Origin: Syntrophaceae bacterium UBA2251
GTDB taxonomy: Bacteria; Desulfobacterota; Syntrophia; Syntrophales; UBA2251
DNA length: 64,000 nt
NCBI GenBank assembly: GCA_002347815.1
Contig: DDXV01000016.1
Span: forward strand, 3,909 to 67,908
Direction of reading: 5' to 3'
Part shown: positions 513-31,674 of the stretch, one piece after another
Numbering within the stretch: position 1 is the first letter of the stretch
How the letters are laid out: each line of letters starts with the position of its first letter
Notes under the pieces: model-generated
Told to the model about the DNA's origin: nothing
Databases searched by the model: none
The model's input: only the letters and a program-made list of their open reading frames with translations
Program-made: the position numbers and the translations under genes

Positions 513-1379
513 TTACGGGGTTCCCGGATCCGCGTCTACGCCACGCCGTAATCCTTCCCCGTGATGCGCGACGCGCAGATGAGCCCGGCCGCCACGGCAC
601 AGTCCATGGCCACGCCGTAGCCCTTGACCGTGTCTCCGGCGAAGTACAGCCCGGCGACGCCCGGGGCCTCCACCGGGGCCTTGAGCGTCCCCGCCTGCGT
701 CTTCGATTTCGCCACGCCCTCCAGCTTCCAGGCCGTCGGGAACAGGGCCCAGTCGATGCTTTTCCGGAATCCCGGATAGCGGCGCTCCAGATAATCGATG
801 ATGAGCCGGCAAGCCTTGGCCATCAGCGCCTTGTCCTTGCCCTCTTTCTCCGTCACCGGGGCATAGGCCGTCATCAGATGGCGGCCGCCCGGCGCGCAGG
901 AGGGATCGATCTGGGACTGGATGTTCCAGCACATGTACACGTCGTACTCGAACCCCTCCTCCTTCGGGATCACGTAGGTGTCCTTCACGCCGACCTTCCA
1001 CTCCCGCTCCGGCATGACCAGTTTGTTCAGACCGAAGTACGGGGCGATGGAACCGTATCCGTAAAGCCCCTCCATCCGGTCGGCCCAATCGCCGGGAAAG
1101 GCGCCCTTGTCCGCGACCCTGAAGGCGTCCTGGATCGGGATGTTGCTGACGACCTTTCCGGCCGCGATCTTGCGGGACGCGCCCGAGGCGTCTTCGATCA
1201 CCACGCCGGTCGCCCGGCCGTTCTCGATCGCGATCTCCCGGACGCGGGTCTCGAGCAGGAGGGTGCCGCCCAGTTCCTCGAAGCGGCGGGCCACCGCCTG
1301 GCTCCAGCGCATGATGCCGCCGGTGGTGAACCCGGAGGGCCACCGCGCCCACCACAATCACATCGTATTTCCCTTCCAT
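513..1379 (-). pseudogene. Remnant of a CrtI/phytoene-desaturase-like FAD oxidoreductase (internal deletion plus frame change)
   Basis: The frame from ATG 1379 reads MEGKYDVIVVGA, the start of a GxGxxG fold, and then becomes nonsense. The other frame (536-1357) reads PSGFTTGGIMRWSQAVARRFEELGG...GLYFAGDTVKGYGVAMDCAVAAGLICASRITGKDYG. That part is colinear with residues ~245-509 of the 509-aa paralog at 8855-10384. About 225 codons are missing between the two parts. Confidence 0.7.
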
Positions 1380-1435: not shown

Positions 1436-2587
1436 CTATCGCAGCAGATGCCCCGCCACGATGGTCCGCTGAATCTGGTTCGTGCCTTCGTAGATCTGTG
1501 TGATCTTGGCGTCGCGCATCATCCGCTCCACCGGGTACTCCCGGACATAGCCGTAGCCGCCGAAGACCTGGACGGCGTCGGTCGTGACCTGCATCGCCAC
1601 ATCCGAGGCGTACCACTTCGCCATGGAGGCGATCTTCGGCAGTTCCGGGGCGTCGGGCTCGCTGTCGATCATCGAGGCCGCCCGGTAGACAATCGACCGC
1701 GCCGTCTCCACCTTGAGCGCCATCTCCGCCAGCATCCACTGCATCCCCTGGAAGGAGGACAGGGGCTTGCCGAACTGGACCCGCTCCTTGGCATAGCGGA
1801 TGGAGGCCTCGAGGGCCCCCTGGGCGATGCCCAGGGCCTGGCCGCCGACGGCCGGCCGCGTGTAGTTGAAGGTCGTCATCAGCGTCCGGAAACCGCCGCC
1901 CTCCGGACCGAGGAGACGGTCCGCCGGGACGAAGACGTCCTCGAACACCAGCTCCCGCGTGTCCGATCCGTGCATCCCCATCTTGTGCTCGTGCTTGCCC
2001 ACGGTGAATCCCGCGTCGCCCTTCTCCAGGATCAGCATGCTGATGCCGCGGTTGCCCTTGTCCTTATCCGTGTAGGCGAGCACCGTCACGATCTGGGCCT
2101 CGCCGCCGTTCGTGATGAAGATCTTGGCGCCGTTCAGGAGATACCCGCCGTCCACCTTCTTGGCCGTCGTCTTCATGCCGGCCACGTCGGACCCCGCCCC
2201 CGGCTCCGTGATGCCGCAGGCGCCGAGACAGGCGCCGGAGGCCAGACGGTAGAGAAAATTCTTCTTCTGTTCTTCCGTCCCCGCCAGGAGCAGCGGATCG
2301 CTCGCCAGGGCCTGCGTGGTCAGGATCACGGATGTGGAGGCGCAGACCCGCGCGATTTCCTCGACGACCAGGACCATCGCGAGCATCCCCGCGCCGGCGC
2401 CGCCATAGGTCTCCGGAATCTGCACGCCTAAAAGCCCGTTCTCGGCCAGGACCTTCACCGACGCCTGGGGGAAGGTCTCCTTCTCGTCAATCTCGGCGGC
2501 GATGGGCGCGAACTTCTCTTCGGCAATCCGCCGCACCGTATCCCGCAACATCGCCTGATCTTCATTCAAAATAAAATCCATATCCAT
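1436..2587 (-). CDS. Acyl-CoA dehydrogenase (short/medium-chain type, 383 aa)
   Basis: [40 protein letters not shown]...[18 protein letters not shown] is a classic ACAD from N- to C-terminus. GGAGG lies just upstream of the ATG at 2587. The 547-aa ORF in the track is an unsupported N-terminal extension. Confidence 0.9.
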
Positions 2588-2664
2588 CCTCCATCGCCCG
2601 CACAGGTCCGCGGGCTCACTGGTTTCCTTGAAAGGCCCACCCCGCCTCCCGTGGGGGCGCCGGC

Positions 2665-3141
2665 TTACGCGACGATATCGAAATACTTGATGTCCTGAAT
2701 GTTCCCCTGCATTTCCGCGGTATCCTTGAAGATCGCCCGCACCTTCATGCCGACCTTGATCTTGGACAAATCGGTTTCGTTGATGATGTGGGAGAAGATG
2801 TTGTCCGCGCCGTCGAGCTTGATGTAGCCGTAGGTATAGGGGATGGGGCGCCGCGCGCCGGTGTTCGGATCGATGAACGGGTAGTTCACCACCGAGAAGG
2901 CCGTAATCACGCCTGTGTCGGACAGGGCCACCAGTTCGGCGAGTTCCTGGAAACAGGGACCGCACACCCGCCGCGGCGGAACGTAGACCTTGCCGCACCC
3001 GTTGCACCGGATGCCGACAAACCGCCTGTTCTGTTTGATTTCCTGAAAAAACTTGCTGCCGTACAGCCCGATGGACCATTCGTAAGGCATCGGATAGGCA
3101 AAAACCGACACGAGTCGTTCGCTTTCGACTTGATGAGCCAT
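2665..3141 (-). CDS. DUF35 family protein (Zn-ribbon plus OB-fold, acyl-CoA-associated)
   Basis: [10 protein letters not shown]...[22 protein letters not shown]...[14 protein letters not shown]. It has the CxxC-x11-CxxC ribbon followed by an OB-fold-like C-terminus, and is 158 aa long. Confidence 0.85.
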
Positions 3142-3158
3142 GATCACTCCCCCTCTTC

Positions 3159-4319
3159 CTATGGTCTCTCGGTGCTCAGGATGACGACGTCCGACCAGAA
3201 GCAACCGCCGAATCCCGTGGCCAGGGCATTCTTCACGTCGGGCACCTGCCGCTTGCCGCCCCTGCCCATGACCTGGATCGCCGCCTCGGCCACCCGGAGC
3301 ATGGCGGTGGCGCCGATGCAGTTCGTCGAGATCACGCCGCCCGACGGGTTGACCGGAATCTTGCCGCCCATATGGGTGTTGCCGTCCCGCACGAAGCGTA
3401 CCCCCTCGCCGGGGCCGCAGAACCCGATATCTTCGATCCACTTGAGCCCCGCCCAGGTGTAGGGCAGGTAAAGCTCGGCCACGTCGATCTCCTCGGCGGG
3501 CTTCGTGATCCCCGCCTGCTGATAGGCATCCTTCGACGCCCGCTGCATCGAGACGAGTCCCTTGTTGTAGTCCGTGGAATCCCCGAACCAGGTGTACGTA
3601 TGCCGCACCGCCGCCGCCTTGAACCAGGCCGGCTTCCGGGCGATCTTCTGGGCCACGCCGTCCGCCGCGAGCACACAGGCGCAGGCGCCGTCGCTCCGCG
3701 GGCAGATGTCGCCCAGCTTGATCGGATAGGCCAGCATCGGCGAAGCCATGATGTCCGCCACGGTCAGCGGCCGTCGCAGGTGCGCGAAGGGGTTGTTCAG
3801 GGCGTTGTTCCGGTCCCGTTCGCCGATGATCGCGGCATCCTCCTGCGTGGCCCCGTACTTCTCCATGTAGGCCGTCGCCTCCGTCGCCAGGCTCGGAATC
3901 GCCCCGGAATACGAAAACCGGTCCCAGATGGCGTCCGAACAGGTGATGATGGCGCCCGTCGTGTCGCTCTCCGAATTCTTCTCGAACCCGATCGCCAGCA
4001 CCCGGTCGAAGAGCCCCGAGGCCACGTGGTAATAGGCGGCGATGGCGACCGTCGCCCCCGTCGTCCCGCCCGTCGAGACCTTCATGATGGGCTTCATGAC
4101 GCCGCCCGATCCTTCGACGCTGTACGTGTCGACGTAATTGATGGATTCGAAGTGGTCCATGTTGCCGATCACGATGGCGTCGATGTCCCGGATGGTGAGT
4201 TCGGCGTCGGCCAGGGCCGCCGTGACCGCCTCGCGGATCATCTCCCGCGAGGTCACGTCCGGCCGATGGCTTTTATGATAGGTCTGTCCCACTCCGACGA
4301 TGGCTACTCTTCTTCCCAT
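3159..4319 (-). CDS. Thiolase-fold protein, SCP-x-like, lacking the nucleophilic Cys (type B')
   Basis: [14 protein letters not shown]..., [15 protein letters not shown] and [20 protein letters not shown] are present. The position of the thiolase active-site Cys reads [22 protein letters not shown]. Confidence 0.85.
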
Positions 4320-4327
4320 GTCTCACC

Positions 4328-5470
4328 TCACTTCTTTCCGCCCATGATCCACACGCAGTGGCTCTGGCCGCAGGGTCCGTTGAAACCGTGTGCAAGCGCC
4401 GTCGCGGCGTTCTTCACCTGCCGGTCCCCGGCCTCCCCGCGGACCTGGAGGGTCGCTTCGATCAGCCTCGCGAGTCCCGCCACGAGGATCGGATTCGCCG
4501 AGAGCGCCCCGCCGGAGGGATTGACGGGAAGCCTGCCGCCCATCGTCGTGATCCCCTTCTCGATCAGGTGCGCGCCCTCACCGGGTTTGCAGAATCCCAA
4601 CCCTTCGAGCCACAGGGGTTCCATGTAGCTGAACGGTTCCAGGACCTCCGCCACGTCGATCTCCGCCATGGGATCCGTGATGCCGGCCATCGCGTAGGCG
4701 CGCCGGGCGGCGTCCTGAAGCGCCACGGGATCGGAAAGCCGGCGGTCTCCCAGAAAATACTCTTCGCAGCAGTGCGCGACCCCCTTGACCCAGACGGGTT
4801 TCTTTTTCGTCCTGGCCGCGATTTCCTCGTTCGCGATGATGATCGCCGCGGCCCCGTCGCTGATGGGGCAGCAGTCGAGGAGCTTCAACGGTTCGGCGAT
4901 CTTCCGCGACTTCATGACGTCCGCGACCGTGATGTCCATCGGCAGTTGGGCGTAGGGGTTGTTCTTCGCGTTGCCGTGGTTCTTCACGGACACCTGAGCC
5001 ACGTCCTCCTCGCGGATGCCGAAGCGGGCCATGTACGCATCGGCCTGAAGCGCGGCCGCGGAAATGGCGTCAATCCCCAGATGGCGGTGGAAGATGGGGT
5101 CGAACATCCCGTTGGTGGTGATGGGGACGCTGCCTTCGCTCCCCTTGTAGTGGGCCACGACAATCGTGGCCTTGTATCCGGACAGCACCCGCATGAGGCC
5201 GTAAAAGGCGCCAAAGGCGCCGTCCCCCGAGACGGTGGAGATGTTCTTGTCCTCTCCGCCGGCCGCATCGCCGACCGCCATGCCGGAAATGGTCCGGCCG
5301 TCGAAAAAGTCGTTCGACACGGTCACGACGCTGTCGATGTCGCCGATCGCAAGCCCCGCATCGTCCAGGGCCGCCCGGGTCACGTCGAAGACCAGGTCGG
5401 CCAGGATCTGGTCCTTTTTCCTCCGTTCATATTTCGTCTGCGCCACGCCGACGATCGCTGCATTGTCCAT
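4328..5470 (-). CDS. Thiolase-fold protein, SCP-x-like, lacking the nucleophilic Cys (type A')
   Basis: MDNAAIVGVAQTKYERRKK..., CCPISDGAAAIIIA and LPVNPSGGALSANPILVAGL are present. The Cys position reads TVSGDGAFGA. Start chosen at ATG 5470 behind GGAGGA; the ORF is open to a TTG at 5494. Confidence 0.8.
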   Translation of the reverse strand: MDNAAIVGVAQTKYERRKKDQILADLVFDVTRAALDDAGLAIGDIDSVVTVSNDFFDGRTISGMAVGDAAGGEDKNISTVSGDGAFGAFYGLMRVLSGYKATIVVAHYKGSEGSVPITTNGMFDPIFHRHLGIDAISAAALQADAYMARFGIREEDVAQVSVKNHGNAKNNPYAQLPMDITVADVMKSRKIAEPLKLLDCCPISDGAAAIIIANEEIAARTKKKPVWVKGVAHCCEEYFLGDRRLSDPVALQDAARRAYAMAGITDPMAEIDVAEVLEPFSYMEPLWLEGLGFCKPGEGAHLIEKGITTMGGRLPVNPSGGALSANPILVAGLARLIEATLQVRGEAGDRQVKNAATALAHGFNGPCGQSHCVWIMGGKK

Positions 5471-5490
5471 TCTCATTCCTCCACCGGCGC

Positions 5491-5946
5491 TCAAATGAGC
5501 TCAAAGGAGTCGATGTCCAGGATGCTCCCGGTGCGCTCCTCCTTGAACTTCGCCTTCACCCTGAGGCCGTTTTTGATTTTGTCCAGATCCTTCTTGATCA
5601 GGTGCAGAAATCCCACGTCCGTCCCGTCCAGCTTGATCAGCGCGTAGGCAAACGGCGGTTTCACCGGCTGGACGGGGTACGCGTAATGCACGATCGTATG
5701 GGCCTCGATGACCCCCTCCGCGGCAACCTCCACCCATTCCTCGATATCGACGAAGCAGCGGCCGCAATTCTTGCGTGGCGGCACGAAGACCGTCCCGCAG
5801 GACGGACACTTCGTCCCCAGAATCTTCCGATCGTCCCTGAGGGACATCAGAAACCGGCTCCCCGTGTCGCCCACCCACCAGCTATAGGGAACGGCGATCC
5901 GGCCCTTCAGGGTCAGGGGTTCCACGTCTTTCAACCATTCAGCCAT
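5491..5946 (-). CDS. DUF35 family protein (Zn-ribbon plus OB-fold)
   Basis: GTKCPSCGTVFVPPRKNCGRCF...IKLDGTDVGFLHLI. Its stop lies within 25 nt of the next start. Confidence 0.85.
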   Translation of the reverse strand: MAEWLKDVEPLTLKGRIAVPYSWWVGDTGSRFLMSLRDDRKILGTKCPSCGTVFVPPRKNCGRCFVDIEEWVEVAAEGVIEAHTIVHYAYPVQPVKPPFAYALIKLDGTDVGFLHLIKKDLDKIKNGLRVKAKFKEERTGSILDIDSFELI

Positions 5947-6033
5947 ACCTTTACCTCTCTCATGTGATGATGCGTCTCATGTTTCCGGTGAGGCGTCCAC
6001 CGCCGGCCGGCGCCCCCGGATCATATGGGAAAC

Positions 6034-7383
6034 CTACGCGCGCGCTTTCAGGATCTCCTCCGCGCAGATCATGGCGGAATTGGCGGCGGCATTCATCCCG
6101 ACGCCCCGGCCCGTATAGCAATCGCCCGCAAAGTACAGCCCGGGGACCTCGGGCAGGTGAACCGGCGGCCGGTAGCGGCCCGTCATGCCCGGGGAGCGGC
6201 CGAGGCCGTCGATGCCCACGTAGAAGCCGTCCTGCCGCCACAGGAGATCCTGCTCCACGTTGGGGAACATTTGTTTCACAAGTTCCCGGAAGGCCGCCAG
6301 GGTCTTCTCCCGGAAGGCCTTGTCCGACGCCTGGGCCGGCGTGCAGCAGGCCCCGATGAAGGCGATCATGTGATTCGCGGGTGCGATCGTGTCGTCGAAA
6401 AGCGTATGCCCGAGAATCTGCAGGGGCAGGCCCACGTTCGGAAGCCGCCAGGCGGACAGGTAGTACGGCGTCGTGAAGAGGGGCGCCTTCGTACCGATGG
6501 TGAACCCCATCGACGCGCTCGTCTCCCGCTCGAGGGTCGGCATGCGTTCGGCCCATGCCGGCGCATACCTCGCCATCTCGTCCATGGAAAGAATCTTCAA
6601 CATGTTCCAGATGGGCATCGCTATGACAGCGATGGGGGCCCGGTAGGTCTCGGCGTCCGTCACGATCTCCGTCGGCTTTCCCGGCTGCACATTGACGCGG
6701 CGGACCGATGTGCCCGTCAGAAGCGTCCCGCCCCGTTCCGTGTACGCCGCCGCCATCGCCTGCATCATCGTCGCGATGCCGCCCAGGGGCATGCGCACCT
6801 GGGCCAGGGGCTCGGCTTCCTTTTCGCTGAGACGCAGCGCTTCCCCATAGATGGCCACGACTTCCCCTGCGGAAATGTGGTCCGCGTCCGTCAGCGTCGT
6901 CTGGCACATCGCGATGGTTTTCAGAAACTCCGCAATCCGGGGCGACGCGATTTTCCGCCGGATCAGTTCGTTGAGCGAAACCCGGTCGAGGGCGTCGAGC
7001 TCCGCCTCGTCCGCCGCCCGCATCCAGGTTTCGAGATCGGCCAGTTCCCTGTCGTCCGACGTCGTCAGGTTCAGGTATTCCGGCAGGAGCTTCCACTGCC
7101 CCTCGTCATAGAGCATGGCCCCCTCGATGTTGCGCGACCAGGGGATCTCTTTCTCCAATCTCTTCAAAAGCGTTGCGCAGGCCGAATACTTGCCAAGATC
7201 GACGGCATGCGTCCCTGAATCCACCTTCCACCCGCCGGGCAGATGGAAGGTCTTGCAGCGTCCTCCGGACGTCTTGCTCTTCTCCAGGATGAGCGTCTTC
7301 AATCCCTTCCCCTGAAGCAAGCCGCCGACCCCGAAGCCGGCGATGCCCGCCCCGATGATGATCGCGTCGTACCGGTCCATCAT
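6034..7383 (-). CDS. FAD/NAD(P)-binding oxidoreductase, phytoene-desaturase (CrtI)/amine-oxidase-like, 449 aa
   Basis: N-terminus MMDRYDAIIIGAGIAGFGVGGLLQGKGLKTLILEKSKTSGGRC (dinucleotide fold). C-terminus GLYFAGDCYTGRGVGMNAAANSAMICAEEIL. Confidence 0.85.
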   Translation of the reverse strand: MMDRYDAIIIGAGIAGFGVGGLLQGKGLKTLILEKSKTSGGRCKTFHLPGGWKVDSGTHAVDLGKYSACATLLKRLEKEIPWSRNIEGAMLYDEGQWKLLPEYLNLTTSDDRELADLETWMRAADEAELDALDRVSLNELIRRKIASPRIAEFLKTIAMCQTTLTDADHISAGEVVAIYGEALRLSEKEAEPLAQVRMPLGGIATMMQAMAAAYTERGGTLLTGTSVRRVNVQPGKPTEIVTDAETYRAPIAVIAMPIWNMLKILSMDEMARYAPAWAERMPTLERETSASMGFTIGTKAPLFTTPYYLSAWRLPNVGLPLQILGHTLFDDTIAPANHMIAFIGACCTPAQASDKAFREKTLAAFRELVKQMFPNVEQDLLWRQDGFYVGIDGLGRSPGMTGRYRPPVHLPEVPGLYFAGDCYTGRGVGMNAAANSAMICAEEILKARA

Positions 7384-7508
7384 TCTTCTCCGTTCCCCCC
7401 TGATCGCTCCGCCCGCCCCGGGTTCCGGTCATTCACCAGGATCGGAGCGAATCGCTTTCTTTAAAAGCGGGTGCGGCGACCCCCCGGACGCCGCAACCGT
7501 TTCTTCAA

Positions 7509-8729
7509 TCACACCTTGACGAGGATCGCCTCGCCCTGCGAAAGACCGCCGCAGATGGCCGCCACGCCCGTTCCGCCGCCCCGGCGCATCAGCTCGTACA
7601 TCATCGTCATCGTGATTCGCGCGCCGCTCGCCCCGACGGGATGACCGATCGCAATCGCCCCGCCGTTGACGTTCGTCTTGTCCTGAAGGGCCTGCCATTT
7701 CGCCGGATCGTCCTTCGCCAGCATCTTGAGCGACACCAGCGTCACCGCAGCAAAGGCCTCGTTGATCTCGATGACGTCCACGTCGTCGATCGTCTGACCC
7801 GTCTGGGCGAACATCTTGTCGATCGTCTGGGCCGGCACGCAGGCCATGTATTTCGGAGAACCCGCCGCACACGCGCAGGCCTCGATCGTCGCGAGCGGCT
7901 TGAGCCCCAGGGCATCCGCCTTTTTCCGCGACATGATCACCATCGCCGACGCACCCGAGTTGAGACCGGGGGCGTTGCCCGCCGTGACCGTCGGGCTGCC
8001 GTAGACGGTCTTCAGGGCCGCCATCTTTTCCAGGTTCAGATTATCCCGGGGAGACTCGTCCTTCTCCAGAACGATGGGGGCCTTCTTCTGCGGGATTTCC
8101 AGGCGCATCAGTTCCCCGCCCACCTCATATTTGCCGGCCTTCGCCGCCGCGAAATACTTCGTGTGGCTGGCCAGGGCCCATTCATCCTGCTTTTCCCGGC
8201 TCACGCCGTACTCCACCGCCACGTGACCCGCATCCGTCGCCACCGGGGCGAACCCCTTGCGGCTGTAACCGAGTTCGAACAGGACATCCTCCAGCGGGAT
8301 GTGTCCCAGACGGCTGCCCCAGCGGGCCTTCGCGGCCGAGGCGATCAGGGGAACGTTCCCCATGTTCTCCGCCCCGCAGGCGACGACGATCTCCGCATCC
8401 CCGGATTTGATGGCCCGGCAGCCCAGCCGCAGCGCCGTCATAGACGAGCAGCAGGCCCGGTCGATCGTGAGCGAGATGTTCTCCTCGGGAAACCCGGCCA
8501 GCAGCGTGATCTGCCGGGCGGGGACGTTCGTGTAGATGGCGTATTCCGCCGGGATGCAGGTGCCGTAATAGACCTCGTCCACCTGTTTGGGATCGAGATC
8601 GATCCGGCGGACCACTTCCTTCAGGGCAAGCACGCCCAGGTCCATGCTCAAAACCGTCTTCAAAGCCCCGTCGAAACGCCCGAAGGGCGTCCGGACGGCA
8701 CTGACCACCACCACATCGTTTGCATTCAT
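7509..8729 (-). CDS. Acetyl-CoA C-acyltransferase (genuine thiolase, 406 aa)
   Basis: MNANDVVVVSAVRTPFGRFDGALK..., active-site Cys context TIDRACCSSMTALR, and C-terminus NGGAIAIGHPVGASGARI...CGGLSQGEA. The track ORF extends 35 codons upstream without support. Confidence 0.9.
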   Translation of the reverse strand: MNANDVVVVSAVRTPFGRFDGALKTVLSMDLGVLALKEVVRRIDLDPKQVDEVYYGTCIPAEYAIYTNVPARQITLLAGFPEENISLTIDRACCSSMTALRLGCRAIKSGDAEIVVACGAENMGNVPLIASAAKARWGSRLGHIPLEDVLFELGYSRKGFAPVATDAGHVAVEYGVSREKQDEWALASHTKYFAAAKAGKYEVGGELMRLEIPQKKAPIVLEKDESPRDNLNLEKMAALKTVYGSPTVTAGNAPGLNSGASAMVIMSRKKADALGLKPLATIEACACAAGSPKYMACVPAQTIDKMFAQTGQTIDDVDVIEINEAFAAVTLVSLKMLAKDDPAKWQALQDKTNVNGGAIAIGHPVGASGARITMTMMYELMRRGGGTGVAAICGGLSQGEAILVKV

Positions 8730-8854
8730 TTTTTCACCAACCACCTTTCTTCGGGATCCTTCGATCCCCGGTCCCGTCATGACGCCGCCGCTGCGCGGAA
8801 GCCGCCGCAGGCGCGAACGGCCTTTCCCGGGCAACGGTCAAACGCCCCCAATCT

Positions 8855-10384
8855 TTACTTGTGGCCGAAATCCTTGCCCAGGATCTCGCCCGCGCAGATC
8901 ATGCCCGAAACGATGGCGCAATCCATGGCCACGCCGTACCCCCGGGCCGTATCGCCCGCGAAATAGAGCCCCTGGATATGCTCCGATTTGACGGGAACTT
9001 TCTGCGTCCCCGCCTGGGAGATGCTCTTCGCCACGCCTTCGAGCTTCCAGCAGACGACATCGAGCTTCCAGTCCATGCTCGCCTTGAATCCGGGATAGAC
9101 CTCCTCCATGAATTCGGGCAGCCGGTTGACGATCTTCTTGACCAGCTCCGGCGTGGTGGCCTCTTTCTCCGTCAGCGGCAGATAGGCGGTGTAGAGATAT
9201 TTCCCGGCCGGCGCGACGGAGGGATCCAATGCGGACTGGATATTCCAGCAGATGTAGACGTCGAAGTCGAACCCTTCGGATTTGGGCAGGACGCAGGTGT
9301 TCTTGAGGCCCATCTTCGCCTCGGCTTCCGGCATCACGAGCTTGTTCAGCCCGATGTAGGGGCAATAGCTCCCGTACCCGTACATGCGCTCGATCTTTTC
9401 GGGATATCCGGCCGGAAAGTGCGCCTTGTCGATGACCTTGAAGGTCTGCTGAGCGGGAATGTTGCTGACGACCCTGGCGGCGGCAAAGGTCTGCTCTCCT
9501 TCCGCGGTGTCAACCAGCACACCCTTGACGGCGCCGTTTTCCACCAGAACCTTCTTGACCTTTGCATTCAAAAGAAGGTCTCCCCCCAGCGCCTGGAATT
9601 TCCGGACGACCGCCTTGGACCATTCCCCCACGCCGTCCTCGACGAATCCGCCGATGTCCCCCAGGACACCCCGCATCAGTTTGGGGCCGAAGGCGGTCTT
9701 GAAGTAGCGGAAGATTTCCCCGATGGAGATGTCCTCCGGGCTGTTGATCGTCGAAAAGAGGGTGGCCACCGAGTGCAGGTGGTTGAAGATCACATCGCTC
9801 TTGCTGATCCCCTTTTCGTCCGCCCACTGCTTGAAGGAAACCTTTTCGAGCGCATCCAGCTGCTCGTCCGTCATCATATGGGCATCGACGTAGAAGGAGA
9901 AGAAGGGGATCTTCATTTCCTTGGCGATCCGCTTGATTTCCGGATCGATCTTGGAGCCGGCGACGTCGTGATAAATCCGTCCCTTATAGTAGTTCCCCCA
10001 CATGCCTCCGTGCTTCTTGACCTCCGGCAACCCGCCGATCTGGTCCTCGAAGTCGAGCATGTAGCCGGCCCCGTTCGCGCTCAAGGCATGATAGCCGACA
10101 TCCAGGGTATACCCATCGAGCAGGCGGTTCTTGACGATCGTCTCGATATCGGGCTGCGATGTCGCGAGACAGGAATACTGCGCGGCCAGCATGTTCTTGT
10201 ACCAGTCGAACCCCTTGTCGGAAATCTCCTTGCCCTTGATGGAAAAGGCGCGTCCGCCGGGACGATCGCACTGCTCCAAAATCAGGACCTTCAAACCCTC
10301 TTTCGCCATCAAGGTTCCAACCGTCAGGCCGCCGACACCGGCGCCGACAACAATCGCGTCATACCGTTTTTCCTTCATGTCCAA
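8855..10384 (-). CDS. FAD/NAD(P)-binding oxidoreductase, CrtI/amine-oxidase-like, 509 aa
   Basis: KRYDAIVVGAGVGGLTVGTLMAKEGLKVLILEQCDRPGGRA...GLYFAGDTARGYGVAMDCAIVSGMICAGEIL. It is the full-length paralog of the remnant at 513-1379. Confidence 0.85.
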   Translation of the reverse strand: MDMKEKRYDAIVVGAGVGGLTVGTLMAKEGLKVLILEQCDRPGGRAFSIKGKEISDKGFDWYKNMLAAQYSCLATSQPDIETIVKNRLLDGYTLDVGYHALSANGAGYMLDFEDQIGGLPEVKKHGGMWGNYYKGRIYHDVAGSKIDPEIKRIAKEMKIPFFSFYVDAHMMTDEQLDALEKVSFKQWADEKGISKSDVIFNHLHSVATLFSTINSPEDISIGEIFRYFKTAFGPKLMRGVLGDIGGFVEDGVGEWSKAVVRKFQALGGDLLLNAKVKKVLVENGAVKGVLVDTAEGEQTFAAARVVSNIPAQQTFKVIDKAHFPAGYPEKIERMYGYGSYCPYIGLNKLVMPEAEAKMGLKNTCVLPKSEGFDFDVYICWNIQSALDPSVAPAGKYLYTAYLPLTEKEATTPELVKKIVNRLPEFMEEVYPGFKASMDWKLDVVCWKLEGVAKSISQAGTQKVPVKSEHIQGLYFAGDTARGYGVAMDCAIVSGMICAGEILGKDFGHK

Positions 10385-10520
10385 ACCTTTCTTTGAGTGA
10401 ATTGAGCATCTCGCTTTACAGATACATCAGTTCATGAAGCATCTGACCGGAAACGACGTCCCGCCGGCCGTTCCACATGGACAGATAATTCTTCTTCTCC
10501 ATCTCGTTCATGTCCACCCC

Positions 10521-10976
10521 TCAGAGAGGTTTGAAATACTGGATGTCCAGGATGTTCGCCTTGCGATCCCGGGCGAAGACCGGCCTCACCCGCATGCCGA
10601 TATGGACCTCGTCGAGATCGACCTCGTCGAGGAAGTGGGCCATGCCCGTATCGGCGCCGTCGAGCCTGATGACGGCATAGACGAAGGGGGCCTTCCGGGG
10701 CTGGACGGGCTCGTTGTAGGTCACGACCGTAAAGGTCTCCACCGTTCCCAGCGGGCCGATTTCGACGGTCTCCGTCAATTCCGAAAAACAGACGTGACAG
10801 GTCGAGCGGGGCGGCCAGAGGACCTTGTTGCATTTAGGGCATTTCGCCCCCAGAATTTTCTGCTGGTCCCTGAGCGCGACATAAAAGCGGCTGCCCATCC
10901 GGCCGGCATAGTAGCGGCTGTTGGCCGTCAGGTGCTGATCGACCTCGAAGGGTTCGTAGTGTTTGATCTCTTCCAT
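10521..10976 (-). CDS. DUF35 family protein (Zn-ribbon plus OB-fold)
   Basis: GAKCPKCNKVLWPPRSTCHVCF...IRLDGADTGMAHFL; 151 aa. Confidence 0.85.
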   Translation of the reverse strand: MEEIKHYEPFEVDQHLTANSRYYAGRMGSRFYVALRDQQKILGAKCPKCNKVLWPPRSTCHVCFSELTETVEIGPLGTVETFTVVTYNEPVQPRKAPFVYAVIRLDGADTGMAHFLDEVDLDEVHIGMRVRPVFARDRKANILDIQYFKPL

Positions 10977-11020
10977 CGGATTCGCTCCTTAGCTTTTTGA
11001 GATGAAATTGCTCGCCGGCC

Positions 11021-11521
11021 TCACTTCGGGCGGACCTGGCCGGGCAGCGGCTCATAATAGAGGATGTCGCTCAGGTCGCCGGTCCGCTGCTCCTTCGGGC
11101 GCAGGACGAGGCGCATCCGCATCCCCACCCAGACCTTCTCCATATCCGGCTCCACGTTGACGAAATGGTCAAGCACCGACGTCGCGCCATCGAGGCGGAC
11201 GGACCCGTAAACGAAGGGCGGCTCGTGGGGTTTCCCCGTCGTGGGATCCGTCAGGGGGAGATACATGATCGTGAAGGCCACGAGCGTCCCCTCCTGCGCG
11301 AGTTCCACCCACTCCTCGTTTTTGACATGACACTCGGCGCAGACGATCCGGGGCGGCAACTGCACCCGCTTGCACCGGGGGCATTTCACCGCGAAGATCT
11401 TGCCGTTATCCCGCATTTCGACCAGGTATTTCGTCAGGTACTGACCGGCGGCAAACCGGTAGGGGACGTCCACCGTCATGGGGATCGAGATCCATTCCTG
11501 TTCTTTCTGTACCATCTTCAC
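11021..11521 (-). CDS. DUF35 family protein (Zn-ribbon plus OB-fold)
   Basis: AVKCPRCKRVQLPPRIVCAECH...VRLDGATSVLDHFV; 166 aa. Confidence 0.85.
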   Translation of the reverse strand: MKMVQKEQEWISIPMTVDVPYRFAAGQYLTKYLVEMRDNGKIFAVKCPRCKRVQLPPRIVCAECHVKNEEWVELAQEGTLVAFTIMYLPLTDPTTGKPHEPPFVYGSVRLDGATSVLDHFVNVEPDMEKVWVGMRMRLVLRPKEQRTGDLSDILYYEPLPGQVRPK

Positions 11522-11527
11522 GCCTCC

Positions 11528-12697
11528 TCAATCATCCAGGGTCTTCGACAGGGCCGTCATGACCGTCCAGTTCGTGCCGCCGTATCCCGTCGTCAGGGCG
11601 CGGCGGACGTCCTTCGGCGCCTGATGTCCGCCGGCGTCCCCGCGGATCTGCAGGGCCGCCTCCCAGACTCGGAGCATCGCCGACGCCCCGATGCAGTTCG
11701 TGGACAGAACCCCCCCGGACGGATTCACCGGAATGGGGCCGTCGATGTTCGTCATCCCCTTCTCGACGAGGCGGAATCCCTCACCGGGGCCGCACAGACC
11801 GAGATCCTCGTACCAGATCAGTTCCGCCCAGGTCGCGGGTTCGTAGACCTCGAAGACGTCGAAATACTCCGCCGGTTTCTTGACGCCCAATTTCTTGTAC
11901 ATGCGCGCGGCGCACACCTTGGAGAAAATCGGCCGCTTCGTGTCGACAAACCGCCAGTCCAACTCGAACTGCTCGTTGTGGGCCGTATCCATCGCCCGGA
12001 TCCAGACGGGCTTCTTGCAGCGCTTCTTCGCCGTCTTTTCGTCGGCCAGCACCATCGCGCAGGCGCCGTTCGAGGCGGGGCACATGTCGAGCATCCGGAT
12101 CGGATAGGACAGCATCCGCGAATTGAGGGCGTCCTCGATGGTGATGTCCAGCTTCAAATGGGCGTAGGGGTTCTTCCGGGCGTTCTGACGCGCCTTGACC
12201 GCGACCATGGCGGAATGCTCCTCCGTGGCGCCCCAGGTGGCCATGTAGGACGAGCCCATCGTGGCGAAATAGCCCACGGCGGCGCCCGCCAGGGAACGGC
12301 CCCAGAGGGGATGGGCCACGCCGCTCAGGATCGCTCCCGTATCGCCCTCCTCCTGCTTTTCGAATCCGATGCACAGGGCCTTGTCGAAGAGGCCGCTGGC
12401 GATGTGGTGGGCGCCGACGCAGACCGTGGTCGCGCCGACCGTGCCGCCGGTCGTGATCTTGAGCCCCGGCTTGCCGTAGGCCCCGGTGCCGTGGACAAGC
12501 CAGCAGTCGGTCATGTGGACCCCTTCGAAGAACTCCATATTGCCCAGGAAGATCGTATCGATCTCGTCGATCGTCATCCCGGCATCGTCCAGGGCCCGGC
12601 GGACCGCTTCGTTCACCATCTCCGCCTGATCCACGTCGTGGCGCCGCGCCGCATGATAGGTCTGTCCTCCGCCGATAATGGCAACGTTTCTCTTCAT
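11528..12697 (-). CDS. Thiolase-fold protein, SCP-x-like, lacking the nucleophilic Cys (type B)
   Basis: MKRNVAIIGGGQTYHAARRHDV..., LKITTGGTVGATTVCVGAHHIASGLFDKALCIGFEK, DMCPASNGACAMVLA and [18 protein letters not shown] are present. The track ORF carries a 92-codon low-complexity extension that I reject. Confidence 0.85.
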   Translation of the reverse strand: MKRNVAIIGGGQTYHAARRHDVDQAEMVNEAVRRALDDAGMTIDEIDTIFLGNMEFFEGVHMTDCWLVHGTGAYGKPGLKITTGGTVGATTVCVGAHHIASGLFDKALCIGFEKQEEGDTGAILSGVAHPLWGRSLAGAAVGYFATMGSSYMATWGATEEHSAMVAVKARQNARKNPYAHLKLDITIEDALNSRMLSYPIRMLDMCPASNGACAMVLADEKTAKKRCKKPVWIRAMDTAHNEQFELDWRFVDTKRPIFSKVCAARMYKKLGVKKPAEYFDVFEVYEPATWAELIWYEDLGLCGPGEGFRLVEKGMTNIDGPIPVNPSGGVLSTNCIGASAMLRVWEAALQIRGDAGGHQAPKDVRRALTTGYGGTNWTVMTALSKTLDD

Positions 12698-12708
12698 GAT
12701 CGATCCTC

Positions 12709-13860
12709 CTACTCCTTTCCGAGGACAACGACGCACTGGTGCTGTCCGCAGAAACCGCTGTGTCCCTGGGCTACGGCGACCTTCACGTCCTTGCTCACCT
12801 GATGGTCCCCCGCCTGGCCCATGACCTGCAGGGCCGCCTCCGCCACACGGTTCAGGCCGTACACATTGATGGGCACGCCGCCCAGGAGGCCGCCGGAGGG
12901 GTTCACCGGGAGCTTTCCCTTGATCTCCGTGGCGCCCGACTCCACCATCCGCCCCGCCGCACCCCGATCGCACAGGCCGAGCCCTTCCATCCAGAGGAGT
13001 TCCTGGTAGGAAAAGTCGTCTCCGACCTCCGCCACGTCGATCTGGCGGCGCGGATTCTTGATTCCGGCCATCCGGTAGGCCTGGGCAGCCGCCTTCTCCA
13101 GGGCGAACACACCGGCCAGATCGCGGTCGCCCAGATAGTAGGCATCATAACAGGTCCCGATCCCCTTGATCCAGACGGGGGTTTTCGTGATCTGGCGCGC
13201 CCGCTTCTCCGAGGCCAGGATCATGGCCACGGCGCCGTCCGTATCCGGTGCGATGTCCAGCTTCCGGATGGGTGAGGCCACGAGCGGACTGCTCAGAACA
13301 TCGGCCACCGTGAAATCGCCGCTCTGATGGGCTACGGGGTTCTTCTTCGCGTTGGCGAGGTTCTTCACCACCACCCGGGCGATCTGTTCCGGGGTGACGC
13401 CGTACTTGTACATGTAGCGCCGGGCCTGAAGGGCCGCCGCCGAGGTATAATCAAACCCCAAAAGGCGCGTATAGATGGGCTCGAAGGCGTCGTTGTTCAC
13501 GATGTTCCGGTTCGTCTGGGACATCTTCGTATGCGCCATCAGCAGGGTGCACTCAAATTCCCCGGACAGGATGCCGATGGTTCCGTAATGGACGGCCGTC
13601 GAACCGTCCAGGGCCATCTTCTCCTCGTTGCGCAGATGCCCGCCGATCACGTCGGTGATCCCGATGTCGGAAATGGTCTGGCCGTCCCAGATGTCATGGG
13701 AACAACTGATGCTGTTATCGATATCCTCGTCCATCTTGAGCCCCGTCTGGCGCAGGACCGCCTCGATGACCTCGTAGGCCATCTCGCCGTAACTGACGTC
13801 CGCGCGCTTGGGGGCAAACTTCGTCTGGGCGATGCCCACGATTGCTACCCGATCTGCCAT
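12709..13860 (-). CDS. Thiolase-fold protein, SCP-x-like, lacking the nucleophilic Cys (type A)
   Basis: MADRVAIVGIAQTKFAPKRADV..., MALDGSTAVHYGTIGILSG, DIAPDTDGAVAMILA and LPVNPSGGLLGGVPINVYGL are present. Confidence 0.85.
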   Translation of the reverse strand: MADRVAIVGIAQTKFAPKRADVSYGEMAYEVIEAVLRQTGLKMDEDIDNSISCSHDIWDGQTISDIGITDVIGGHLRNEEKMALDGSTAVHYGTIGILSGEFECTLLMAHTKMSQTNRNIVNNDAFEPIYTRLLGFDYTSAAALQARRYMYKYGVTPEQIARVVVKNLANAKKNPVAHQSGDFTVADVLSSPLVASPIRKLDIAPDTDGAVAMILASEKRARQITKTPVWIKGIGTCYDAYYLGDRDLAGVFALEKAAAQAYRMAGIKNPRRQIDVAEVGDDFSYQELLWMEGLGLCDRGAAGRMVESGATEIKGKLPVNPSGGLLGGVPINVYGLNRVAEAALQVMGQAGDHQVSKDVKVAVAQGHSGFCGQHQCVVVLGKE

Positions 13861-13983: not shown

Positions 13984-15168
13984 TTAAATCCGTTCAAAGA
14001 TCGTGGCGATGCCCTGACCGCCGCCGATACACAGGGTGGCCAGCCCGTAACGCCCGCCCGTCCGCTGCAGGTGCTTCAGCACCGCCAGGGCCAGCCGGCC
14101 GCCGCTCATGCCGTTGGGATGACCGAAGGCGATGGCGCCGCCGCAGGGGTTCCATTTCTCCGGATCCACCGCATGACCGTTCTTCTTGAGCTCCTTCATC
14201 ACGGCCAGCGTCTGGGAGGCGAAGGCTTCGTTGCATTCCACCGTATCCATATCGGCCAGCTTCAGGCCGGCCCGTTCCAGGGCCTTGGGAATGGCATAGG
14301 CCGGACCGATGCCCATGTACTTCGGCTCCACGCCCGCCAGGGCGCAGGTGACAAAACGGCCCAGGGGCTTGAGTCCCATGGATTCGCACTTTTCCTTCGA
14401 CATCAAGAGGACGGCCACGCCGCCGTCGTTCATCCCCGACGAACTCCCGGCGGTCACCGTTCCCCCCTTCTTGAAGGCGGGCTTGAGGGCGGCCATCTTT
14501 TCCAGCGTCGTCGCCCGGGGGTGTTCGTCCCGGTCGAAAACGATGGGATCGCCCTTCCGCTGCGGAATCGTGATGGGGACGATCTCGTCCTTGAAGTAAC
14601 CGGCCTCGATGGCCTTGATGGCGAGCGTCTGGCTCCTCAGGCCGAAGGCGTCCTGCTCCTCGCGGGAGATGCCCCACTCCTCGGCCAGGATCTCGGCGAC
14701 GATCCCCATCGGGGCGTTCGTTTCCGGTGTCGGTCCGACCTCGCGACCCAGGAAGGCGTTGGGCATCAGGGAGAAGGGAACCTTCTGGCGCTCCATCAGA
14801 TACGGCGCGTTGCTCCAGCTTTCGCAGCCGCCGGCGATATAGGTGTCGCCAAAACCGGCCAGAATCGCCATCGCCGCGGAATTGATGGTCTGCAGCGCGG
14901 AGCCGCACTGCCGCTCCACCGTCTGCGCCGTTACGGACACGGGAAAGCCCGCCTTGAGCACCGCCCAGCGGCCGATATTGACCGCCATGTTGTTCGTACA
15001 GGCATGACCGATCAGGACATCCTCCACGATGGCCGGGTCGATCTTCGTCTTTTCAAGCAGTCCCTTCAGGGCGAAGGCGGCCAGTTCCTCGGGGCGAAAC
15101 CCGGACAGGGCGCCGCCCATTCTTCCAATCGGTGTTCGCACACCGTCGACAATCCATACTTCCTTCAT
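13984..15168 (-). CDS. Acetyl-CoA C-acetyl/acyltransferase (genuine thiolase, 394 aa)
   Basis: MKEVWIVDGVRTPIGRMGGAL..., VERQCGSALQTI (active-site Cys), and GGAIAFGHPNGMSGGRL...CIGGGQGIA. Confidence 0.92.
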   Translation of the reverse strand: MKEVWIVDGVRTPIGRMGGALSGFRPEELAAFALKGLLEKTKIDPAIVEDVLIGHACTNNMAVNIGRWAVLKAGFPVSVTAQTVERQCGSALQTINSAAMAILAGFGDTYIAGGCESWSNAPYLMERQKVPFSLMPNAFLGREVGPTPETNAPMGIVAEILAEEWGISREEQDAFGLRSQTLAIKAIEAGYFKDEIVPITIPQRKGDPIVFDRDEHPRATTLEKMAALKPAFKKGGTVTAGSSSGMNDGGVAVLLMSKEKCESMGLKPLGRFVTCALAGVEPKYMGIGPAYAIPKALERAGLKLADMDTVECNEAFASQTLAVMKELKKNGHAVDPEKWNPCGGAIAFGHPNGMSGGRLALAVLKHLQRTGGRYGLATLCIGGGQGIATIFERI

Positions 15169-19984: not shown

Positions 19985-20740
19985 TCAGCGCGATGGGGCG
20001 CCGCCTGGCGGGCGCGTTTCCAACAACAGCGATGGGGCGGCCGCCCGCGTTTCGCAGGAGGGCGCGTCCGGACCCGACGGCCGGGCCTGAACGGCCCGTC
20101 CGTTCATCAAATTCAACGCCTTCAGACGACCCGAGCGAATCTCTTCACACAACTCGGCCACCCCGTTCACCGGCCGTTCAAAGACCGTCCGGCAGATCCC
20201 CACGGTGTGCAGGGCATGGGAATCGCTGGCGCCCGTCCCCGCGATGTGCATCGCCGCCATGGCCTCGGCCGCCTGCGCTCTCGCCTCGTCGTCATAATCG
20301 GGGTGCTCCGCCTCCAGGCCGTCCACCTTGAAGTCGTAGAGCTGCTTCCCCGCACCGTAATACCCCTCGTCGCCATGGCGAAACTTCTTGAAGGGGTGGG
20401 CGGCAACGACCACCCCGCCCTCCGCGTGGACGAGTTCGATCACCTCCTCCGCCGACCGGCTGGAACCGAGGCTCTTCGGGTATCCGAACACGAGGAACTC
20501 CCCCTGGAAGCGACCGTGACGCCAGTAGCAGGCCACCTCCTGACCGGGAATGATCAGGAGATCCCGGACGCCGCTCGCGCGGCGAAGCTGTTCAATCTGG
20601 TCGTCGCTCCAGCGGATGCCGTGCTCCGTCAGGGCAATCCCGTCCAGACCCACGGCCCGTGCCTTCTTGAGAAGTTTCGCCGGATCGATATTGCTGCAGC
20701 CGGAGTACCGGTTCGTGTGAATGTGGAGATCGATGTCCAT
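19985..20740 (-). CDS. PHP-domain metal-dependent phosphoesterase
   Basis: MDIDLHIHTNRYSGCSNI...GIALTEHG...VAAHPF...GASDSHAL are typical PHP His/Asp motifs. The start is 8 nt after the upstream ACAD stop. The C-terminal ~40 aa are low complexity. Confidence 0.8.
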   Translation of the reverse strand: MDIDLHIHTNRYSGCSNIDPAKLLKKARAVGLDGIALTEHGIRWSDDQIEQLRRASGVRDLLIIPGQEVACYWRHGRFQGEFLVFGYPKSLGSSRSAEEVIELVHAEGGVVVAAHPFKKFRHGDEGYYGAGKQLYDFKVDGLEAEHPDYDDEARAQAAEAMAAMHIAGTGASDSHALHTVGICRTVFERPVNGVAELCEEIRSGRLKALNLMNGRAVQARPSGPDAPSCETRAAAPSLLLETRPPGGAPSR

Positions 20741-20747
20741 GGACGGC

Positions 20748-21887: not shown

Positions 21888-21918
21888 GCCCTGACCTCTC
21901 CCTTCTCGTTTGTTCGTT

Positions 21919-22785: not shown

Positions 22786-22848
22786 CCCGTCACTCCGCGA
22801 GATCTTCGAAGATCCCGATCTTTCCGTTTGCGCTGAAGACTTTGCCTT

Positions 22849-23301
22849 TCAGGGTTTGCGCCCGACGAGGGCCCGGGTCGTATAGATCACGACGTCTTCT
22901 CCCCGCTGGTTCTTGATCGAATTCTTGGAAACGATGACGCCCCGCTTGTCGTCCTTGGCCTGGAGATCCATGATCTCCCCTTCGCAATGGATGGTGTCCC
23001 CGATCTTGACCGCCCCGACGAAGCGGACGGAATCCATCCCGTAGAAGGCGATGAACGACTTGGGCAGGGCCACATAGGGTCCCAGTCGGAAAATCAGCGC
23101 GCTGCCGACGCACAGGCTCAGCATCCCGTGGGCGATGCGCTCGCCGAAGAAGGTCTTTTTCGCGAATTCCACATCCGTGTGGAGCGGATGCCAGTCCCCC
23201 GTGAAGGCGGCGAACAACGTGATGTCGGTCTCGGTGATCGTGCGCGCCGGAGAGATAAATTTTTCGCCTACGGTGTAATCCTCAAAATACGATTTCTCCA
23301 T
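22849..23301 (-). CDS. MaoC-like (R)-specific enoyl-CoA hydratase (hotdog fold)
   Basis: ITETDITLFAAFTGDWHPLHTDVEFAKKTFFGERIAHGML; 150 aa. Confidence 0.88.
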   Translation of the reverse strand: MEKSYFEDYTVGEKFISPARTITETDITLFAAFTGDWHPLHTDVEFAKKTFFGERIAHGMLSLCVGSALIFRLGPYVALPKSFIAFYGMDSVRFVGAVKIGDTIHCEGEIMDLQAKDDKRGVIVSKNSIKNQRGEDVVIYTTRALVGRKP

Positions 23302-23337
23302 CCTGTGTTGCCTCCTTCAATCCATGTCGGTTTATGC

Positions 23338-31671: not shown

Positions 31672-31674
31672 ACT

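Follow-up and report, generated by a model that had tools for sequence, protein, structure and literature searches.

The stretch analysed here (the window) comprises 64,000 nucleotides of the genome of Syntrophaceae bacterium UBA2251 (assembly GCA_002347815.1, contig DDXV01000016.1, positions 3,909 to 67,908 of the forward strand). Between positions 2,665 and 13,860 it carries two paralogous gene modules, each encoding two proteins of the thiolase fold that have lost the thiolase catalytic residues and two DUF35 zinc-ribbon/OB proteins. All eight open reading frames lie exactly where an earlier note, made from the sequence alone, had placed them, on the minus strand, and each is preceded by a GGAGG-type Shine-Dalgarno sequence:

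A: 12709..13860, minus strand; A-type Cys-less SCP2-thiolase-fold subunit of module 1, 383 aa, with an LDG nucleophile loop, GDDF and GVP.
B: 11528..12697, minus strand; B-type Cys-less thiolase-fold subunit of module 1, 389 aa, with TTGGT, YEPA and TNC.
D1a: 11021..11521, minus strand; DUF35 Zn-ribbon/OB protein, 166 aa, of the type encoded directly after a B-type gene.
D1b: 10521..10976, minus strand; DUF35 Zn-ribbon/OB protein, 151 aa, of the D2a-like type.
D2a: 5491..5946, minus strand; DUF35 protein, 151 aa, preceding A' and closest to D1b.
A': 4328..5470, minus strand; A-type subunit of module 2, 380 aa, with GDG, LEPF and ANP.
B': 3159..4319, minus strand; B-type subunit of module 2, 386 aa, with STGGT, YLPY and TNC; the most conserved gene of the cluster.
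D2b: 2665..3141, minus strand; DUF35 protein, 158 aa, encoded after B'.

Genes within each module are separated by 6-44 nt, and those of the A-B pairs by 8-11 nt. The GC content of the window is ~60-69% and that at third codon positions of its real genes ~0.8-0.9; a scan for promoters and terminators gave matches at chance level. Profile searches against Pfam, which the note had proposed, confirm both fold assignments. A, B, A' and B' match Thiolase_N (weakly) and Thiolase_C_1 (E 3e-28 to 5e-38), and D1a, D1b, D2a and D2b match zf-ChsH2 and OB_ChsH2_C, i.e. DUF35, all four with a C-x2-C-x10-C-x2-C zinc ribbon. The relatedness of A to A' and of B to B' is borne out by identities of 46% and 47.5%, respectively, as against 35-38% between A-type and B-type proteins. 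The DUF35 proteins are likewise of two types: D1b and D2a form the closest pair (43%), while D1a and D2b are encoded directly 3' of the B-type genes. Every string quoted in the note was located, including RQCGSALQ and RACCSSMTA in the two classical thiolases of the operon (Thl1 and Thl2, listed below). Its statement that all four proteins keep the landmarks of SCP-x thiolases stands apart from A, whose CoA (coenzyme A) loop reads DIAPDTDGAVA and lacks the Cys of the D.CP.SDGA motif.

We find that the catalytic residues of thiolases are missing from all four thiolase-fold proteins. Each was aligned by HMMER with solved SCP2-type thiolases (BbsB, 7pxp; zebrafish SCP2-thiolase, 6hsj; P. furiosus, 7yvy), and a MAFFT alignment of 202 sequences combined the window proteins with four PDB references and with orthologues taken from 80 genomic loci. 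The three catalytic positions read as follows:

Nucleophile-Cys column: A Gly (Ala by HMMER), A' Gly, B Gly, B' Gly.
HDCF motif: A GDDF, A' LEPF, B YEPA, B' YLPY.
GHP-His column: A Val, A' Asn, B Asn, B' Asn (motifs GVP, ANP, TNC and TNC, respectively).

The two aligners concur on the missing residues and differ in the Gly/Ala placement in A, which by either has no Cys within 17 residues of the nucleophile position. Thus the absence of the nucleophile Cys and of the GHP His, which the note had read by eye, holds. Gly occupies the nucleophile column in 16 of 19 orthologues of A, 73 of 74 of A', all 18 of B and 82 of 83 of B'. In none of the active-site loops do the A-type or B-type alignments show another conserved Cys; the sole B-type-invariant Cys is Cys206 of the D.CP motif, found also in some normal SCP2-type thiolases, and A' has no Cys at all before residue 200. 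All four proteins score under every curated NCBIfam thiolase cutoff. Given that the nucleophile Cys and both catalytic His are gone, thiolysis is excluded and A, B, A' and B' are, judged by their sequences, incapable of it.

The four proteins, which the note had treated together, are not equivalent according to the alignment: in this window only the B-type carries the Tyr characteristic of the retro-aldolases Ltp2 and Sal, which is found neither in A nor in the window's A'. A triad consisting of Gly for the nucleophile Cys, Tyr for the His of HDCF and Asn for that of GHP is present in 100 of 101 B-type orthologues and is kept even in variants of 43% identity, the Tyr at the first HDCF-equivalent position occurring in 18/18 orthologues of B and 82/83 of B'. 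Both types have private invariant residues, His15, Glu58, Asp64, His240, Pro286 and Arg342 in the B-type (B' numbering) and Asp83-Gly84 of the nucleophile loop, Tyr90, His107, Asn120, Gln142 and Tyr282 in the A-type (A' numbering). Given these private polar invariants, neither type is decaying, and the idea that the A-type is a dead pseudoenzyme was dropped in view of its own invariant Asp-Gly, His and Tyr. Elsewhere A' mostly reads VEGDG/YDAF/[AS]H[PA], and the Tyr of YDAF is present in 56 of 74 A' orthologues, in other phyla; the Syntrophales clade of the window (≥79% identity) has VSGDG/LEPF/ANP, five coupled substitutions. As far as the aligned orthologues reach, the Tyr and His of the A' site are lost only in this clade. 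The B-type genes are also the slowest to evolve in the cluster: B' outdoes A' in conservation at 67 of 70 loci and Thl2 at 33 of 43, figures that may be inflated by the choice of loci according to B' similarity; in module 1, where that bias does not apply, B surpasses A in conservation at all 16 loci. A-type and B-type share a one-residue deletion before the xNP motif, which suggests that they split from an ancestor that was already Cys-less.

Proteins 99% and 98% identical to B' are encoded in two Syntrophales metagenome-assembled genomes (MAGs), and a search of GTDB species genomes located relatives of B' in 487 stretches, from hosts such as Syntrophales/Smithella, Desulfomonile, Desulfatibacillum, Leptospirales/Spirochaetota, Anaerolineae, Actinomycetota and Syntrophomonadaceae. 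In cultured Desulfatibacillum alkenivorans, module 2 is accompanied by Thl2, an acyl-CoA ligase and an AO2-like flavoprotein of the HpnE/CrtI type (L001/L028). An exhaustive HMMER search returned 451 clusters (50% identity) at E up to 1e-30; of 117 full-length representatives, 31 show the B triad and many resemble the A-type, and true Cys/His/His thiolases are first met at ~E 1e-50. The core DUF35-A'-B'-DUF35 is found in essentially every locus, across phyla, and the gene-neighbourhood survey suggested by the note thus shows that both the A-B adjacency and the presence of two distinct DUF35 genes hold widely. Thl2 lies directly upstream of the module-2 core in 43 of 82 loci. The whole array Thl1-A-B-DUF35-DUF35-(CrtC-like)-(AO1)-Thl2-DUF35-A'-B'-DUF35 is found again in no fewer than 14 loci, which belong to several phyla, and a block comprising an acyl-CoA dehydrogenase (ACAD) of 600 aa, MaoC, X288, a second ACAD and PHP frequently adjoins.

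A question remains, what reaction could such proteins catalyse? Judged by profile matches and gene order, their closest known relative is an operon of the Ltp4/Ltp3 type. In Streptomyces griseofuscus (AP018517.1; L085:8017-11167) an enoyl-CoA hydratase (ECH), a 313-aa fused double-DUF35 protein and proteins of 349 aa and 388 aa are encoded side by side, with acyl-CoA ligases nearby; the genes of the last two, the A-type and B-type members, overlap by 4 nt. The 349-aa protein, at 563 bits, exceeds the cutoff of 419 for PRK07937 ('lipid-transfer protein') and has A'/A as its best matches; the 388-aa protein passes PRK08313 (706 bits, cutoff 514), best matches B/B' (42-43% identity) and keeps the B signature as YVPF/TNP. 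The window proteins stay below the same NCBIfam cutoffs, A and A' scoring 187 and 172 with PRK07937, B and B' 388 and 367 with PRK08313. Adjacent A-type and B-type genes, two DUF35 domains and translational coupling make up the same architecture as in the window modules. In the Streptomyces fusion the N-terminal DUF35 domain has no zinc-ribbon Cys and the C-terminal one keeps CxxC...CxxC, so that the two DUF35 positions are not equivalent there either.

The Streptomyces operon mirrors the documented order Rv3521-ltp4-ltp3 (Rv3521-Rv3522-Rv3523) of Mycobacterium tuberculosis. Presumably Rv3521 also contains DUF35, and the sizes of the Rv3521-Rv3523 proteins resemble those in Streptomyces. The adjacent genes ltp3 and ltp4, known also from Rhodococcus, are co-induced ~97-fold by phytosterol. 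On genetic grounds, their products are reported as aldol lyases needed for C24-branched (beta-branched) sterol side chains (Wilbrink 2012). In the literature searched we found neither a description of Ltp4 and DUF35 as a complex nor a biochemical or structural study of Ltp3/Ltp4/DUF35, and no link of such modules to syntrophs or Desulfobacterota. Of the parallels drawn in the note, that of DUF35 proteins as scaffolds stands; BbsAB or the archaeal complex is not the nearest relative, as the Ltp3/Ltp4-type pair is nearer, and the architecture is to that extent less unprecedented.

A second line of comparison leads to the characterised retro-aldolases of steroid side chains. TcLtp2 employs as base Tyr294 of its YDHF motif and as acid Tyr344, and CtSal employs Tyr302 and Cys304 of a YDCY motif (PMC12329534). 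Both motifs correspond to HDCF of SCP2 thiolases, and both enzymes have Gly at the thiolase nucleophile position, where its backbone amide contacts the beta-hydroxyl (PMC12329534). TcLtp2-ChsH2 (6ok1) and CtSal-Shy (9myr) have in common with B/B' the exchange of Cys to Gly and, by motif correspondence, that of the HDCF His to Tyr; they also resemble the present system in the SCP2-thiolase fold, the DUF35 partner and the MaoC hydratase and ACADs of the pathway. The Gly and Tyr of B/B', together with the homology to the Ltp4/Ltp3-type operon, strengthen the note's idea of a non-thiolytic retro-aldol reaction, in part only, as Ltp2 and Sal have general-acid residues that these proteins lack and the Tyr is, in this window, confined to the B-type. 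The Cys that follows Asn in TNC was considered as a general acid and ruled out, this position being C, A or P among B-type proteins. Ltp2 (6ok1) and Sal (9myr) rank 8th to 11th in PDB sequence searches. An AlphaFold model of B' (predicted local distance difference test, pLDDT, 74.7; predicted template-modelling score, pTM, 0.84) has template-modelling (TM) scores of 0.80-0.84 to SCP2 thiolases, 0.78 to Ltp2 and 0.76 to Sal, the last two at 23-28% identity.

With the gene structure, the catalytic-residue loss, the conservation pattern, the synteny and the homology to the PRK07937/PRK08313/double-DUF35 operon in hand, we propose that each module probably, by a modest measure of confidence, specifies a heteromeric C-C lyase of the thiolase fold that works without thiolysis, by retro-aldol cleavage of a branched acyl-CoA. 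An A-type/B-type heterodimer would form the core, flanked by two different DUF35 subunits, one per core subunit. Several features point indirectly to such a complex. The A-type gene always adjoins the B-type gene and is translationally coupled to it, and the DUF35 types stand in fixed positions; in addition, Streptomyces joins its two DUF35 domains in one protein, one related protein (P0190) fuses an A-like domain to DUF35, and in four relatives (L066, L071, L075 and L078) SCP2-SCP2-DUF35 fusions follow an A-B pair in place of the two free DUF35 genes. One of these encodes a 539-aa SCP2-DUF35 fusion after a divergent A-B pair, followed by a gene for a beta-keto-acid:acetyl-CoA enzyme (BKACE; L066:688-2304). 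Fusion of DUF35 to an SCP2 sterol-carrier domain suggests delivery of a very hydrophobic substrate. The ACAD and hydratase of the same island would make a 3-hydroxyacyl-CoA unfit for oxidation and thiolysis, most plausibly a tertiary alcohol with a branched beta-carbon; retro-aldol cleavage as in Ltp2/Sal would then yield acetyl- or propionyl-CoA and a ketone or aldehyde. The B-type subunit, with Gly for Cys and Tyr at the position of the Ltp2/Sal base, is the best candidate for the aldolase site, and the A-type, with its invariant Asp-Gly, His and Tyr, would be a partner remodelled in another way, which may perform a second chemistry or serve structurally. Within a TetR-controlled beta-oxidation island the modules would handle those rounds that ordinary beta-oxidation cannot.

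Several points count against this proposal. The third motif position (Sal Cys304, Ltp2 His296) is an invariant Pro in the B-type; the presumed column of Ltp2 Tyr344 and Sal Gln352, set by residue spacing alone, is Asn; and where the YD motif has its Asp, B has Glu and B' has Leu. Equivalence of the B-type Tyr with that of Ltp2/Sal follows from the published statement on the HDCF motif by transitivity, not from direct alignment. The DUF35 proteins are free-standing (151-166 aa) and MaoC is separate, unlike the fusion of DUF35 to the MaoC hydratase in ChsH2 and Shy. Confidence in the B' model is moderate, with low-confidence stretches that include the loop with Asn333, and as the model is about equally near to SCP2 thiolases, Ltp2, Sal, BbsB, PhlC and archaeal thiolase (TM 0.76-0.84), the fold does not discriminate aldolases from thiolases. 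The equation of PRK07937/PRK08313 with Ltp4/Ltp3 is drawn from gene order, from protein sizes as we presume them and from the model name. No aldehyde dehydrogenase or ketone carboxylase was found within this window, and the choice of loci by B' similarity bears on the conservation argument, as said above. Finally, the heteromeric assembly, retro-aldol cleavage and a branched, possibly isoprenoid, acyl-CoA as substrate are inferences from sequence and gene context.

Could the remodelled sites serve another Cys-independent chemistry on CoA esters? Decarboxylation of malonyl- or beta-carboxy-acyl-CoA (compare TbSLP and heterodimers of the KS-CLF type), a hydratase or isomerase reaction, or a synthetic aldol or Claisen condensation would all be conceivable, and the differing invariant sets of A-type and B-type would fit two reactions. 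The absence of the Ltp2/Sal acid residues speaks for such an alternative, as do carriers that include the alkane-degrading Smithella and Desulfatibacillum. The alkane pathway of these organisms needs a decarboxylation. TbSLP, a Cys-less SCP2-thiolase-like protein with YDCF, does decarboxylate malonyl-CoA slowly, but the rate is negligible and the authors now propose an aldolase (PMC12329534). The conserved MaoC and ACAD neighbours fit a hydration-then-lyase logic, and the sole genetic assignment within the homologous actinobacterial pair is that of an aldol lyase. We regard such other chemistry as unlikely, though it deserves to be kept in mind.

Less likely still is a non-catalytic role, in which the modules would be scaffolds channelling substrates for Thl1 and Thl2, perhaps also for the hydratase and dehydrogenase, much as DUF35 does in archaea. 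All thiolase catalytic residues are lost, a classical thiolase precedes each module, Thl2 is syntenic as described, and DUF35 is a documented scaffold in the archaeal thiolase/HMG-CoA synthase and fatty-acid-synthase complexes. A scaffold, however, would not be expected to be more conserved than the classical thiolases it serves, as the B-type is, nor to keep invariant polar residues, the aldolase-type Tyr among them, in its former active-site loops; moreover, about half of the loci, like Streptomyces, have the four-gene core with no classical thiolase beside it. That the proteins are ordinary thiolases with a nucleophile located elsewhere, as the retained fold and CoA-loop motifs and the database labels 'acetyl-CoA C-acetyltransferase' and 'thiolase family protein' might imply, is very improbable and was ruled out by the lack of a conserved active-site-loop Cys, the loss of both catalytic His and scores under all curated cutoffs.

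The genes around the modules bear on the substrate of the proposed lyase. The note's MaoC hydratase and ACADs in an upstream TetR unit are present and form a block that is syntenic in relatives (19985..25887); the note had passed over the classical thiolase before each module and three CrtI/HpnE-like flavoprotein genes in or beside the region. The features, all on the minus strand, are:

AO3 remnant: 536..1357, minus strand; C-terminal 270 aa of a third CrtI-like flavoprotein.
ACAD3: 1436..2650, minus strand; acyl-CoA dehydrogenase directly downstream of D2b, start approximate.
AO2: 6034..7383, minus strand; flavin adenine dinucleotide (FAD) flavoprotein, weakly HpnE/CrtI-like.
Thl2: 7509..8834, minus strand; classical thiolase upstream of module 2, start codon uncertain, profile match from residue 41.
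AO1: 8855..10384, minus strand; FAD flavoprotein, CrtI/carotenoid-isomerase-like, between the modules in 15-16 relatives.
CrtC-like deletion scar: 10385..10520, minus strand; between D1b and AO1.
Thl1: 13984..15168, minus strand; classical Cys-containing acetyl-CoA C-acyltransferase, directly upstream of module 1.
Crotonase-type enoyl-CoA hydratase: 15285-16070, minus strand; an ordinary beta-oxidation step.
3-Hydroxyacyl-CoA dehydrogenase: 16115-17029, minus strand; an ordinary beta-oxidation step.
PHP-type metallohydrolase: 19985-20779, minus strand; upstream conserved block.
ACAD: 20748-21971, minus strand; upstream conserved block.
X288, PP2C-like: 21919-22785, minus strand; upstream conserved block.
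MaoC hydratase, 150 aa: 22849-23301, minus strand; upstream conserved block.
605-aa ACAD: 23338-25155, minus strand; upstream conserved block.
TetR: 25270-25887, minus strand; upstream conserved block.

Relative to a 95-97% identical Syntrophales locus (L006), the apparent scar marks the absence of a CrtC-like gene of ~1.15 kb, of which ~17 N-terminal and 18 C-terminal codons are left. Such a gene stands exactly between D1b and AO1 in 16 relatives; its assignment comes from a weak Pfam lipocalin-domain match, with no NCBIfam or PDB match. Against the same locus AO3 (536-1357 and about 1343-1400) has lost ~227 codons (~129-355 of the L006 ORF) and changes frame, which may reflect either genuine decay of the gene or an error in MAG assembly. 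When the genes flanking 81 loci were clustered de novo, the following neighbour counts emerged:

BKACE (near-cutoff match): 22 of 81 loci.
CrtC-like lipocalin-domain protein (weak assignment): 16 of 81 loci.
CrtI/CrtISO-like flavoprotein (AO1): 15 of 81 loci.
HpnE-like flavoprotein (AO2): 15 of 81 loci.
CoA-transferase, each of two subunit clusters: 6 of 81 loci.
Aldehyde:ferredoxin oxidoreductase (AOR): 5 of 81 loci.

One locus only (L033:15739-20526) has a complete acetone-carboxylase-type enzyme (Hydantoinase_A, Hydantoinase_B and Acetone_carb_G), directly downstream of B'-DUF35-FeADH-BKACE-AO1. Taken together, the CrtI/CrtISO- and HpnE-like flavoproteins, the CrtC-like protein, BKACE, the ketone carboxylase and the SCP2-DUF35 fusions suggest beta-branched, possibly isoprenoid, acyl-CoA substrates. 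On these neighbourhood statistics, with the carboxylase from a single locus, and in view of the ordinary hydratase, dehydrogenase and thiolase genes, we hypothesise that ordinary rounds of beta-oxidation alternate with 'blocked' rounds at beta-branched carbons.

Other observations in the window concern genes further away or of weaker assignment. An acyl-CoA ligase gene (AMP-binding, 17073-18208) looks like a pseudogene, as its N-terminal ~160 residues are gone, with no room for them between it and the upstream gene, and its C-terminal domain continues in another frame from ~17430. X288 has only a weak PP2C/SpoIIE-like match and no PDB match; it is conserved inside the acyl-CoA island together with the PHP/CehA-type metallohydrolase and, in three relatives (L003, L023 and L040), a Metallophos_2 protein, all of them phosphoesterase-fold proteins in a cluster that otherwise resembles beta-oxidation. 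A signalling trio of an FHA-domain protein, a PP2C phosphatase and a CHASE2 Ser/Thr kinase is encoded at 30973-34964, and between ~26 and 64 kb the window otherwise holds mostly housekeeping genes (Mdh, PGM, FTHFS, PurL, CTP synthase and glycogen debranching enzyme).

It is conceivable, if doubtful, that the modules provide the key step of an unrecognised oxygen-independent route for beta-methyl-branched (isoprenoid-derived) acyl-CoAs. Dehydrogenation and hydration would give a 3-hydroxy-3-methylacyl-CoA, which the A/B/DUF35 lyase would split into acetyl-CoA and a methyl ketone; the ketone would be carboxylated to a beta-keto acid, and BKACE, or a CoA ligase with a classical thiolase, would return an acyl-CoA to the next ordinary round of beta-oxidation. 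The logic of a blocked round would, hypothetically, mirror the tertiary-alcohol scheme proposed for C24-branched sterols. It would also resemble an anaerobic isoprenoid-ketone route of the geochemical literature. The route proposed here, if true, would bypass both alpha-oxidation and Atu/Liu-type carboxylation of the methyl branch, and would be widespread among anaerobes that live by syntrophy, sulfate reduction or fermentation in sediments and digesters. Should the substrate indeed be branched or isoprenoid, the modules would also offer a molecular handle on the anoxic mineralisation of phytol-, archaeal-lipid- and terpenoid-derived acids.

Regardless of the substrate, the genes matter for annotation. 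Hundreds of anaerobe genomes, and Streptomyces, annotate these non-thiolytic genes as acetyl-CoA acetyltransferases, and as a consequence metabolic reconstructions of syntrophs, sulfate reducers and digesters miscount thiolases and miss a probable dedicated C-C lyase step. Solving the proposed complex would also help to settle what Ltp3/Ltp4 do in sterol-degrading actinobacteria, M. tuberculosis among them, where the assignment has long been a purely genetic one.

How do the modules compare with systems already known? BbsAB benzoylsuccinyl-CoA thiolase (7pxp) is the best PDB sequence match for B' (E 1e-38) and, as here, joins an SCP2-type thiolase subunit to a Zn-ribbon DUF35 subunit in an anaerobic modified beta-oxidation. 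BbsB, however, is a true thiolase that keeps its nucleophile Cys (aligned to Gly here), HDAF and GHP; BbsAB has one type of core subunit and one type of DUF35, unlike the two of each in the window, and the window proteins reach 121-143 bits against the BbsAB NCBIfam cutoff of 750. In the archaeal thiolase/HMG-CoA synthase/DUF35 complex and in the Sulfolobus KT/DUF35 fatty-acid synthase, DUF35 holds a thiolase-fold dimer in a multi-enzyme complex, and sequence and fold are similar to those of the window proteins; those thiolases are intact and carry out Claisen condensation, whereas here the Cys is absent and there is no HMG-CoA synthase partner. ST0096 of Sulfolobus tokodaii (4yzo), the best PDB match for A and A', has Ser for the nucleophile Cys and, unlike A/A', keeps the His of the HDCF-equivalent motif (HDMA) as well as GHP; it seems to hold an intermediate position between thiolases and the Cys-less clade, and no assigned function for it was found in the literature searched. 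Ltp2 and Sal, which resemble the B-type in the Gly and, by motif correspondence, in the Tyr, are homodimers with two identical hydratase-fused DUF35 domains, as opposed to two core subunits and two free DUF35 proteins here. The actinobacterial Ltp4/Ltp3-type operon has a single DUF35 fusion, whereas the window has two separate DUF35 proteins and a duplicated unit, and its carriers are strict anaerobes with no steroid genes nearby. What seems new, going by sequence and by the literature searched, in which it is not described, is a probable heteromeric core whose two subunits show different remodelled active-site signatures, each with a DUF35 partner of its own. We rate the modules as a widespread, misannotated and biochemically uncharacterised, probably heteromeric form of a kind that is already known, the thiolase-fold/DUF35 lyases.

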